From the IMG/VR virus record IMGVR_UViG_2734482592_000014: a stretch of DNA of 4,887 nt, one strand, 5' to 3'. The notes under the pieces are model-generated. The model saw only the letters and a program-made list of their open reading frames with translations, was not told where the DNA came from and did no database searches. The position numbers and the translations under genes are program-made. Source of the DNA: a virus. Lineage: Duplodnaviria; Heunggongvirae; Uroviricota; Caudoviricetes. Positions 733 to 4,887 of the stretch are shown piece by piece (the stretch's first letter is position 1; every line of letters starts with the position of its first letter).

Positions 733-3700
733 ATGGGTAAAGGCAGCAGTAAGGGGCATACCCCGCGCGAAGCGAAGGACAACCTGAAGTCCACGCAGCT
801 GCTGAGTGTGATCGATGCCATCAGTGAAGGGCCGGTTGAAGGTCCGGTGGATGGATTAAAAAGCGTGCTGCTGAACAGTACGCCGGTGCTGGACAATGAG
901 GGGAATACCAACATCTCCGGCGTCACGGTGGTGTTCCGGGCAGGTGAGCAGGAGCAGTCACCGCCGGAGGGATTTGAATCCTCCGGCTCCGAGACGGTGC
1001 TGGGTACGGAAGTGAAATATGACACGCCGATCACCCGGACCATCACGTCGGCAAACATTGACCGACTGCGTTTTACCTTCGGTGTACAGGCACTGGTGGA
1101 AACCACCTCAAAGGGAGACAGGAATCCGTCTGAAGTTCGCCTGCTGGTTCAGATACAGCGTAACGGTGGCTGGGTGACGGAAAAAGACATCACCATTAAG
1201 GGCAAAACCACCTCGCAGTATCTGGCCTCGGTGGTGGTGGATAACCTGCCGCCGCGCCCGTTTAATATCCGGATGCGCAGAATGACGCCGGACAGCACCA
1301 CAGACCAGCTGCAGAACAAAACGCTCTGGTCGTCATACACCGAAATCATCGATGTGAAACAGTGCTACCCGAACACGGCACTGGTCGGCGTACAGGTGGA
1401 TTCGGAGCAGTTCGGCAGCCAGCAGGTGAGCCGTAATTATCATCTTCGCGGGCGCATTCTGCAGGTGCCGTCGAACTATAATCCGCAGACGCGGCAATAC
1501 AGCGGTATCTGGGACGGAACGTTAAAACCGGCATACAGCAACAACATGGCCTGGTGTCTGTGGGATATGCTGACCCATCCGCGCTATGGCATGGGGAAAC
1601 GTCTTGGTGCGGCAGATGTGGATAAATGGGCGCTGTATGTCATCGGCCAGTACTGTGACCAGTCGGTGCCGGACGGCTTTGGCAGCACGGAGCCGCGCAT
1701 CACCTGTAATGCCTGGCTGACCACACAGCGCAAGGCGTGGGATGTGCTCAGTGATTTCTGCTCGGCGATGCGCTGTATGCCGGTATGGAACGGGCAGACG
1801 CTGACATTCGTGCAGGACCGACAGTCGGATAAGGTGTGGGCCTATAACCGCAGTAATGTGGTGATGCCGGATGATGGCGCGCCGTTCCGCTACAGCTTCA
1901 GCGCCCTGAAAGACCGCCATAATGCCGTTGAGGTGAACTGGATTGACCCGNNNNNNNNNNNNNNNNNNNNNNNNNNNNNNNNNNNNNNNNNNNNNNNNNN
2001 NNNNNNNNNNNNNNNNNNNNNNNNNNNNNNNNNNNNNNNNNNNNNNNNNNNNNNNNNNNNNNNNNNNNNNNNNNNNNNNNNNNNNNNNNNNNNNNNNNNN
2101 NNNNNNNNNNNNNNNNNNNNNNNNNNNNNNNNNNNNNNNNNNNNNNNNNNNNNTCAGCGTGGGTGCTGAAGGGCTTCGTCATGTACCGGGCGATGTCATT
2201 GAAATCTGTGATGATGACTATGCGGGTATCAGCATCGGCGGGCGCGTGCTGGNNNNNNNNNNNNNNNNNNNNNNNNNNNNNNNNNNAACGGCTGGGAGAC
2301 GGCGACAGAGCTTGTGGAGGACACGCAGGCCATTGCCCGTTACGGTCGTAACGTCACGAAGATGGATGCCTTTGGCTGTACCAGCCGGGGGCAGGCACAC
2401 CGCGCAGGGCTGTGGCTGATTAAAACAGAACTGCTGGAAACGCAGACCGTGGACTTCAGCGTGGGCGCAGAAGGGCTTCGCCATGTGCCGGGCGATGTCA
2501 TTGAAATCTGTGATGATGACTATGCCGGTATCAGCACCGGCGGGCGCGTGCTGGCGGTAAACAGCCAGACCCGGACGCTGACGCTCGACCGTGAAATCAC
2601 GCTGCCATCCTCCGGTACCATGCTGATAAGCCTGGTTGACGGAAGTGGCAATCCGGTCAGCGTGGAGGTTCAGTCCGTCACCGACGGCGTGAAGGTGAAA
2701 GTGAGCCGTGTTCCTGACGGCGTTGCTGAATACAGCGTGTGGGGGCTGAAGCTGCCGACGTTGCGCCAGCGCCTGTTCCGCTGTGTGAGTATCCGTGAGA
2801 ACGANNNNNNNNNNNNNNNNNNNNNNNNNNNNNNNNNNNNNNNNNNNNNNNNNNNNNNNNNNNNNNNNNNNNNNNNNNNNNNNNNNNNNNNNNNNNNNNN
2901 NNNNNNNNNNNNNNNNNNNNNNNNNNNNNNNNNNNNNNNNNNNNNNNNNNNNNNNNNNNNNNNNNNNNNNNNNNNNNNNNNNNNNNNNNNNNNNNNNNNN
3001 NNNNNNNNNNNNNNNNNNNNNNNNNNNNNNNNNNNNNNNNNNNNNNNNNNNNNNNNNNNNNNNNNNNNNNNNNNNNNNNNNNNNNNNNNNNNNNNNNNNN
3101 NNNNGCTGACAGTCCGGGCGGTAAATGCCTGGGGACAGCAGGGCGATCCGGCGTCGGTATCGTTCAGGATTGCCGCACCGGTAGCACCGTCGCGGATTGA
3201 NNNNNNNNNNNNNNNNNNNNNNNNNNNNNNNNNNNNNNNNNNNNNNNNNNNNNNNNNNNNNNNNNNNNNNNNNNNNNNNNNNNNNNNNNNNNNNNNNNNN
3301 NNNNNNNNNNNNNNNNNNNNNNNNNNNNNNNNNNNNNNNNNNNNNNNNNNNNNNNNNNNNNNNNNNNNNNNNNNNNNNNNNNNNNNNNNNNNNNNNNNNN
3401 NNNNNNNNNNNNNNNNNNNNNNNNNNNNNNNNNNNNNNNNNNNNNNNNNNCGTGGATAACGGGGCGCACTTTGACGGCGACCAGAGCGGCACGGTGAATG
3501 GTGTCACGCCGCCAGCGGTGCAGCACCTGACTGCCGAAGTCACCGCAGACAGCGGGGAATATCAGGTGCTGGCGCGCTGGGACACGCCGAAGGTGGTGAA
3601 GGGCGTGAGCTTCCTGCTCCGTCTGACCGTAACAGCGGATGACGGCAGTGAGCGGCTGGTCAGCACGGCCCGGACGACGGAAACCACTTACCGCTTCACA

Positions 3701-4887
3701 CAACTGGCGCTGGGGAACTACAGGCTGACAGTCCGGGCAGTAAATGCGTGGGGGCAGCAGGGCGATCCGGCGTCGGTATCGTTCCGGATTGCCGCACCGG
3801 CAGCGCTGTCGCGGATTGAGCTGACGCCGGGCTATTTTCAGATAACCGCCACGCCGCATCTTGCGGTTTATGATCCGACGGTACAGTTTGAGTTCTGGTT
3901 CTCGGAAAAGCGGATTGCGGATATCAGGCAGGTTGAAACCACAGCACGCTATCTTGGCACGGCGCTGTACTGGATAGCCGCCAGTATCAATATCAAACCG
4001 GGCCATGATTATTACTTTTATATCCGCAGTGTGAACACCGTTGGCAAATCGGCATTCGTGGAGGCTGTTGGTCAGCCGAGTGATGATGCATCCGGTTATC
4101 TGGATTTTTTCAAAGGCGAGATAGGGAAAACCCATCTGGCTCAGGAGCTGTGGACGCAGATTGATAACGGTCAGCTTGCGCCTGACCTGGCTGAAATCAG
4201 GACGTCCATTACGGATGTCAGCAATGAAATCACGCAGACCGTCAATAAGAAACTGGAAGACCAGAGTGCGGCAATTCAGCAGATACAGAAGGTTCAGGTT
4301 GATACAAATAATAACCTGAACAGCATGTGGGCTGTGAAGCTGCAGCAGATGCAGGACGGACGCCTTTATATCGCGGGTATTGGTGCCGGTATTGAGAACA
4401 CCCCTGACGGCATGCAGAGTCAGGTGCTGCTGGCGGCGGACAGGATTGCGATGGTTAATCCTGCGAATGGCAACACAAAACCGATGTTTGTTGGTCAGGG
4501 CGATCAGATATTCATGAACGACGTGTTCCTGAAACGCCTGACGGCCCCCACCATTACCAGCGGTGGAAATCCATCGGCATTTTCCCTGACTCCGGACGGA
4601 AAGCTGACCGCTAAAAATGCGGATATCAGTGGCAGTGTGAATGCGAACGCCGGGACGCTCAACAATGTCACGGTAAATGAAAACTGTACGATTAAGGGCA
4701 TGCTGGAGGCGACTCAGGTCAGAGGTGACTTCGTTAAAGCTGTATCCAAATCATTTCCGAAACAGGCTGGTACGTGGGGTAACACGGAAACACCAAACGG
4801 GACGGTTACAGTCACCATAAGCGATGATCATAACTTTGACCGCCAGATTATTATTCCGCCCATTATTTTTAACGGTATAGCGTATGA
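733..4887 (+). CDS. J: Tail tip attachment / host specificity protein J (lambda gpJ family); 5' end complete, 3' end beyond window, interrupted by N runs
   Basis: ATG at 733 sits 8 nt after GGAG (721-724). Readable segments: A 733-1950 ([34 protein letters not shown]...[11 protein letters not shown], phase 1), B 2287-2804 ([20 protein letters not shown]...[10 protein letters not shown], phase 1), C 3452-4887 ([25 protein letters not shown]...IIFNGIAY, phase 2, no stop before window end). All three are collinear with lambda gpJ as I recall it. Phase differs between B and C because the N-run lengths are not true lengths. Confidence 0.9.
1951..2153. other. N run (203 nt), assembly gap or masked sequence inside J
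   Basis: Contiguous n characters; starts on a J codon boundary after ...WIDP. Confidence 0.95.
2154..2252 (+). repeat. 99-nt island between gaps: diverged copy of J segment 2456-2554
   Basis: Manual alignment to 2456-2554 gives 6 mismatches in 99 nt. In the coding phase ([32 protein letters not shown]) 5 are synonymous and 1 changes Thr to Ile. The island is in phase 2, while flanking J segments A and B are in phase 1. Confidence 0.85.
2253..2286. other. N run (34 nt), assembly gap or masked sequence
   Basis: Contiguous n characters. Confidence 0.95.
2805..3104. other. N run (exactly 300 nt), assembly gap or masked sequence inside J
   Basis: Contiguous n characters; round length suggests a placeholder or estimated gap. 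Confidence 0.95.
3105..3200 (+). repeat. 96-nt island between gaps: diverged copy of J segment 3724-3819
   Basis: Manual alignment to 3724-3819 gives 7 mismatches in 96 nt. In coding phase ([31 protein letters not shown]) 5 are synonymous and 2 are nonsynonymous (V/A, P/L versus AAPAALSRI in the main copy). Confidence 0.85.
3201..3450. other. N run (exactly 250 nt), assembly gap or masked sequence inside J
   Basis: Contiguous n characters; round length suggests a placeholder or estimated gap. Confidence 0.95.

Follow-up and report, generated by a model that had tools for sequence, protein, structure and literature searches.

Mosaicism among co-resident lambdoid prophages is well established, for example in multi-lambdoid E. 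coli O157 genomes. One published hallmark by which a false heterotype duplication can be recognised in a draft assembly is a gap separating its two copies within a scaffold (Ko et al., Genome Biol 2022, PMC9516828). The stretch of DNA analysed here (the window, 4887 positions, composed of five stretches of real sequence and four N-runs) resembles such false duplications within its gene J. Diverged versions of one locus follow one another along a single scaffold with gaps in between: a 99-nt fragment, island 1, is bounded by 203 and 34 N, and a 96-nt fragment, island 2, by 300 and 250 N. As in the described system, the duplicate is missing from contiguous assemblies of relatives (114 and 117 loci), and what separates the copies is true variation specific to a haplotype (heterotype), as opposed to errors (homotype). 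Unlike that system, which concerns allelic haplotypes of diploid vertebrates, the present case involves a bacterium, with paralogous prophage genes or different strains supplying the versions; in addition, each duplicated piece is short, at about 100 nt, and the likeness is drawn here from sequence, gaps and relatives. These comparisons suggest that island 1 is very probably a fragment of an alternative J allele, stranded between N-runs some 300 bases upstream of its proper place, and thus a draft-assembly artefact that would have arisen through scaffolding of multiple J versions. The features of the window are as follows.

1-672, + strand: gene I, lambda tail assembly protein I, complete, a 223-aa ORF (Pfam PF06805 Lambda_tail_I, E=3.4e-27)
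733-4887, + strand: gene J, tail tip attachment / host specificity protein, with four scaffold gaps and two misplaced islands, running off the window end
1-1950, + strand: first contig, 1950 nt, gene I and the 5' part of J, A-type haplotype
1951-2153: scaffold gap of 203 N
2154-2252, + strand: island 1, 99 nt, very probable fragment of an alternative J allele, covering J codons of about 465-496
2253-2286: scaffold gap of 34 N, with no biological counterpart
2287-2804, + strand: middle contig, 518 nt, mid-J, B/L009-type haplotype, unlike the type of the flanks
2456-2554, + strand: homologous position of island 1, called the "main copy" in the preliminary description, exact in 23 IMG/VR contigs
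2805-3104: scaffold gap of 300 N
3105-3200, + strand: island 2, 96 nt, fragment of a B-type J allele
3201-3450: scaffold gap of 250 N, with no biological counterpart
3451-4887, + strand: last contig, 1437 nt, 3' part of J, A-type haplotype

The exact I protein was found in 605 contigs and is named 'tail assembly protein [Shigella sonnei]' in the source, and a terminator scan between I and J found none. For the J region, annotated gpJ genes match in over 4,400 of the 5,426 complete E. coli genomes, usually at several sites in each (median 2-3, maximum 14). Read in frame 3, island 1 encodes a 32-residue peptide with no stops, 31 residues of which are the same as in the copy at 2456-2554. On a domain map taken from the closest intact J (1165 aa), this peptide corresponds to J residues of about 465-496, at the C-terminal end of PF13550 Phage-tail_3 (330-498 in the intact relative). 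Island 1 resembles the lambda gpJ / TipJ genes, its identity to annotated gpJ genes and to the J genes of phages PhiR40_1, 21, ev017 and cdtI being 94-99%. In the comparison with public lambdoid J genes that the preliminary description had proposed, matches occurred in 3,286 genomes, with all 99 nt aligned at 99% identity to gpJ of E. coli APEC E12049, among others, and J in 49 phage records was 94-98% identical. Unlike those genes, island 1 is a 99-nt fragment, and its combination of an A-type 5' part with a non-A 3' part was present in no searched collection.

The position of island 1 was evaluated against contiguous J genes. Between the end of the first contig and the start of the middle contig (1950 and 2287), about 114 contiguous loci have a distance of 3 nt and the window has 336 positions; likewise, the middle and last contigs (2804 and 3451) are 54 nt apart in 117 contiguous loci and 646 positions apart in the window. 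Among complete E. coli genomes, the best matches need 3959-3962 nt for the 4887 positions of the whole window, and the scaffold excess amounts to 925 nt in total (333 + 592). Since contiguous J genes have 3 nt where the window has 336, and the 4887 positions correspond to about 3960 nt, island 1 is no extra gene segment. It is misplaced, lying 302 nt upstream of its homologous site, and island 2 sits 619 nt upstream of its own homologous site at 3724-3819, which lies within the last contig.

The homologous site of island 1 begins 172 nt past the end of the first contig (113 contiguous loci), where the scaffold has a gap of 203 N, and that of island 2 begins 327 nt past the end of the middle contig (101 loci), where the scaffold has 300 N. 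Because the N-runs before the islands approximate these true site distances, each island appears to have been set down at close to the correct distance from the contig before it. No simple rule accounts for the runs of 34 and 250 N. Furthermore, in three other IMG/VR draft scaffolds (L050, L061 and L074), A-type and B-type J pieces are joined at N characters, and repeated J pieces begin exactly at N joins, indicating that the artefact recurs at J. The repeat architecture of J in the window was absent from every contiguous relative, and repeated J pieces were found only in these three drafts.

The same geometry bears on the possibility that the N-runs conceal real sequence and that J truly contains about 333 nt of additional sequence, as a partial internal duplication or an insertion. 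In favour of this, the inserted length (336 vs 3) happens to be a multiple of three, which leaves the middle contig in the reading frame set by the J start at 733. In scaffold coordinates, however, island 1 is out of frame with that start (the 302-nt spacing is 2 mod 3), and the second gap complex shifts the frame so that the last contig is also out of frame. In addition, no extra sequence was present in the approximately 114 contiguous relatives or in the best complete genomes, the repeated J pieces known elsewhere occur only in drafts and start at an N join, and the copies in the window are parted by N-runs instead of being joined by continuous in-frame sequence. We therefore regard a true duplication as exceedingly improbable.

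Next to its position, the content of island 1 distinguishes it from the copy at 2456-2554. The two form a direct repeat with 93 of 99 positions identical (94%), covering the full length of the island between the N-runs. With the codon frame taken from J by homology, alignment bore out the earlier count of six differences, comprising five synonymous third-position changes and one coding change. The synonymous changes (island/main) are GGT/GGC for Gly at 2164/2466, GCT/GCA for Ala at 2167/2469, CGT/CGC for Arg at 2179/2481, GTA/GTG for Val at 2185/2487 and GCG/GCC for Ala at 2224/2526. The sole replacement, at codon position 2 (2235/2537), is ATC for Ile in the island and ACC for Thr in the main copy. 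The preliminary description had called it conservative, a term that is generous for a polar to hydrophobic change; the replacement itself was confirmed and is a common polymorphism.

By the Nei-Gojobori method, the comparison of island 1 with 2456-2554 gave S=23.8, N=72.2, Sd=5, Nd=1 and dN/dS=0.057, and at least five synonymous changes out of six are expected under random placement with a binomial P of 0.0045. The six differences are mostly synonymous because both versions derive from functional J genes that diverged under purifying selection. The comparison of the middle contig with CP023645.1 gave dN/dS=0.094, and a value of about 0.09 holds for any pair of J alleles. Similarly, island 2 is 93% identical to 3724-3819, with seven differences of which five are synonymous. 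Purifying selection is hence a property of the divergence of the J family and nothing special to island 1.

We then looked for the island 1 states among natural J genes. A degenerate search in which the six variant sites were left free recovered 120 J alleles with 15 haplotypes, and five of the six island states were each present in 8-53% of these alleles: T at 2164 in 52, T at 2167 in 9, A at 2185 in 45, G at 2224 in 33 and T at 2235, in the Ile codon, in 64, making Ile the majority state. The remaining state, T at 2179, was present in 0 of the 120 alleles of this sample, yet it was found in 22 of 22 A-type loci. All six variant states of island 1 are thus natural polymorphisms. The nearest full-length natural alleles (L002, L036 and L047) are 1 nt from island 1, differing at 2179 only. 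Island 2 is exact in six loci (L009, L044, L050, L061, L074 and L094), in each case at the homologous J position.

These data leave very little room for the view that island 1 is the same J copy as 2456-2554 with sequencing errors. Its short length and its isolation between gaps are what such a view has in its favour, and nothing more. Against it, five of the six changes are synonymous (P=0.0045), every changed state is known naturally at its own site, and island 2, an object of the same kind, is an exact natural allele; we consider sequencing error next to negligible as an explanation. The preliminary description had likewise set aside sequencing error and a recent duplicate, and its proposal of a second, naturally evolved J allele is supported by the synonymous excess, by the presence of the island states in sampled alleles and A-type loci, and by the multi-copy nature of J. 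Outside that description lay the artefactual position produced by scaffolding, the arbitrariness of the copy labels, the hybrid nature of the 99-mer and the family-wide extent of purifying selection.

The haplotype content of the scaffold was compared along its length. The flanks matched CP023645.1, CP022459.1 and AAUYHQ010000006.1 best. Against CP023645.1 (L026), a record outside the E. coli collection, the first contig had 4 mismatches in 1950 nt, at 825, 896, 1806 and 1896, and the last contig had 0 mismatches in 1437 nt, as it did against several A-type IMG/VR loci; identity to CP023645.1 was thus 99.8-100% for the flanks and 94.6% for the middle contig. The middle contig differed from all A-type loci by 27-28 mismatches in 518 nt and from L009 by 3 mismatches in 518 nt. 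Five natural loci matched its 3' part at 0-1 mismatches, and all of them carried exact island 2. Because the 3' part of the middle contig and exact island 2 co-occur in these five loci, both belong to one haplotype type (B/L009-like), the first and last contigs being of the A type. The A and B alleles are identical over hundreds of bases and then 5% apart, and the return to the A type falls across the second gap and a 170-nt tract in which A and B are identical. A change from A to L009 type inside the first contig would speak for a natural mosaic; near its end, 1806 and 1896 are L009-like, but the intervening 1823 and 1840 are A-like.

No A-type flanks with this middle were found among the sampled genomes, the best whole-window identity among complete genomes being 97.2%. 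Therefore, the scaffold is a mixture of at least two J haplotype types. Since the middle contig and island 2 differ in type from the flanks, the labels "main copy" and "island" are arbitrary. The copy at 2456-2554 may in fact be the intruder, as the first 55 nt of island 1 carry the type of the flanks. The locus is like known lambdoid prophage mosaicism in that J segments are freely reassorted (15 haplotypes over six sites) and several copies occur per genome. Unlike demonstrated prophage mosaicism, the succession of A, B and A types along the scaffold (A-B-A) may be a chimera of the assembly instead of a natural mosaic.

Island 1 is itself composed of two parts. The initial 55 nt match exactly in 22 A-type loci, carriers of a widespread Shigella sonnei-type allele, all of which diverge from the island thereafter; for the final 44 nt, exact matches occur in 29 non-A loci, B-type ones included. 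The switch between A and non-A falls within a shared 23-nt stretch at 2186-2208. The whole 99-mer was not found in the 5,426 complete E. coli genomes (best match 99%) or in phage GenBank records (best match 98%), and exact searches did not find it in GTDB representatives, IMG/VR or JGI metagenomes; it is therefore no plain copy of a known allele. Exact searches with the tail of the first contig likewise gave no match in IMG/VR or GTDB. In L050, L061 and L074, the two halves of island 1 lie on two separate J copies of one draft scaffold. Island 1 may accordingly be either a new mosaic natural allele or a chimeric fragment.

If island 1 were a chimera, a k-mer path, a read-level event or PCR would have joined 55 nt of an A-type J to 44 nt of a B-type J across the shared 23 nt. 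The rare T at 2179 speaks for such an event, in that the first 55 nt containing it are exact only in A-type loci, all with a different 3' part, as do the last 44 nt, exact in 29 non-A loci, the lack of the whole 99-mer in any locus or collection searched, and the separation of the halves in the three drafts. On the other hand, J alleles are heavily mosaic in nature, and with 15 haplotypes over six sites in 120 alleles, a new mosaic J allele would be unremarkable. A natural allele is just 1 nt away (L002, L036 and L047). Moreover, a third haplotype would be required, because the B-type segment of the scaffold has C and C, not G and T, at 2526 and 2537. Taken together, a chimeric origin of the 99-mer is possible but rather unlikely.

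It is also conceivable, if quite doubtful, that island 1 is a real unsampled hybrid J allele, A-type up to 2185 and non-A from 2209, with a crossover in the shared 23-mer that would have arisen through recent gene conversion between J genes of co-resident lambdoid prophages. Should gene conversion have occurred, the A-B-A main path of the scaffold could be a second conversion tract, and the draft would have caught ongoing exchange of tail-tip genes inside one Shigella/E. coli genome.

We considered whether 2456-2554 and island 1 could be reciprocal phase-switch products of A-type and L050-type B alleles. This was rejected as less parsimonious, for it needs a double switch in the middle contig over two sites, and the haplotype of that contig is natural in L009 and 23 other contigs. 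A De Bruijn bubble in otherwise identical copies was also rejected: the alleles nearest island 1 differ from the middle contig at 2454 and 2559 and throughout its length, and the flanks past the outermost variants, 10 and 17 nt, are too short and asymmetric for a simple branch.

The preferred reading, a misplaced fragment of an alternative J allele, can be put as a sequence of events. The window would be a short-read draft scaffold over lambda-like I and J, probably of a Shigella sonnei-like genome, to judge by the source name of the I protein. The sample would have held more than one diverged version of J, sharing identical stretches and about 5% different elsewhere, and because of these shared and diverged stretches, the assembler would have broken J into pieces. 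The scaffolder may then have strung pieces of different J versions into one line by read-pair distances. Islands 1 and 2 would be roughly read-sized fragments of alternative J genes, each set near the correct distance from the preceding contig. The contig truly covering the position could not overlap the island and would have been pushed downstream behind N, the outcome being a false, gap-flanked duplication with J longer by 333 nt here and by 925 nt overall. We infer this exact assembler behaviour from the geometry and from comparison with relatives.

As for the donor, the preliminary description had left open a second prophage or a co-assembled strain. We infer a second prophage of the same genome, which is favoured over a second strain by base rates, because multi-copy J is usual and other isolate drafts also contain A and B types together. 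According to the other view, a co-assembled second strain or contaminant of lower abundance, or heterogeneity within the culture, contributed island 1, and only read-sized scraps of its J survived. This would fit the presence of just 99 and 96 nt, even though the alleles nearest island 1 differ by about 5% all along the middle contig, the next differences from that contig falling immediately beyond the island, at 2454 and 2559. Longer contigs would normally be expected from a second copy of equal coverage, and low coverage would explain the scraps. However, tangled graphs of three or more mosaic J copies also yield tiny contigs, and several J copies in one genome are the norm. Pieces of A-type and B-type J occur together in three other isolate drafts, and the 518-nt middle contig is itself of a non-flank haplotype, which implies substantial coverage of the second type. 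A second strain is therefore an unlikely donor.

In summary, island 1 is very probably not a genomic feature at 2154-2252 but an allelic fragment left stranded in a draft that was mis-scaffolded and is probably chimeric. Taken at face value, the scaffold gives a J that is 925 nt too long, frameshifted and endowed with apparent internal repeats, and it would be a mistake to take these features for insertions, duplications or pseudogenisation. Labels such as "main copy" are unreliable in gapped scaffolds over a multi-copy prophage gene, since the 518-nt middle contig differs in haplotype type from the flanks. The underlying biology is already known: lambdoid J genes are multi-copy, mosaic and diverging under purifying selection, and the artefact at this locus is ordinary behaviour of a short-read scaffolder.

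A second displaced fragment of the same kind as island 1, the 99-nt J-allele fragment at 2154-2252, was found downstream.

3105-3200 (96 nt): island 2; partner 3724-3819

Island 2 differs from its partner at seven positions, five of them synonymous and two causing replacements (Val/Ala and Pro/Leu), and matches six IMG/VR loci exactly. Island 2 reproduces a natural B-type J allele without change, and it is misplaced, sitting 619 nt upstream of its proper place. Island 1 changes from A-type (Shigella sonnei-type) to non-A-type states inside a 23-nt tract (2186-2208) common to A-type and B-type alleles. In each island, the sequence past the outermost differences totals exactly 27 nt (10+17 and 15+12), an equality that could be coincidental or could stem from the mechanics of assembler k-mers or of reads.

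The flanks (1-1950 and 3451-4887) are S. sonnei-type, with 99.8-100% identity to CP023645.1, whereas the middle contig (2287-2804) carries a J haplotype resembling that of locus L009, with 3 mismatches, and differs from CP023645.1 at 28 sites. The main path of the scaffold either joins two J copies into a chimera or follows a natural A-B-A mosaic; a J mosaic of this form was absent from all sampled genomes. At 1806, 1896, 2322, 2336 and 2406, the window base differs from both CP023645.1 and the B-type allele of draft L050, which are identical to each other around these sites. Several of these states are common to alleles of the L009/L003 type, which shows mosaicism at a fine scale.

Upstream of J, the spacer includes a short GC hairpin with a T-run after it.

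673-732 (60 nt): I-J intergenic spacer
about 690-712: GC hairpin and T-run, CGCCTCCGGGCGGTTTT

A consensus terminator scan made no call on this hairpin and T-run. In some relatives (locus L002), I and J are instead separated by an additional small ORF.

In other draft scaffolds, A-type and B-type pieces from two or three J copies are strung together at single-N joins.

L050 (IMG/VR draft 2700989365): join at 13607
L061 (IMG/VR draft 2693429679): join at 1782
L074 (IMG/VR draft 2700989368): joins at 1065, 2987 and 4254

This concatenation gives rise to apparent tandem J repeats in all three drafts. Thus, the class of artefact seen in the J gene of the window recurs at J in public data.
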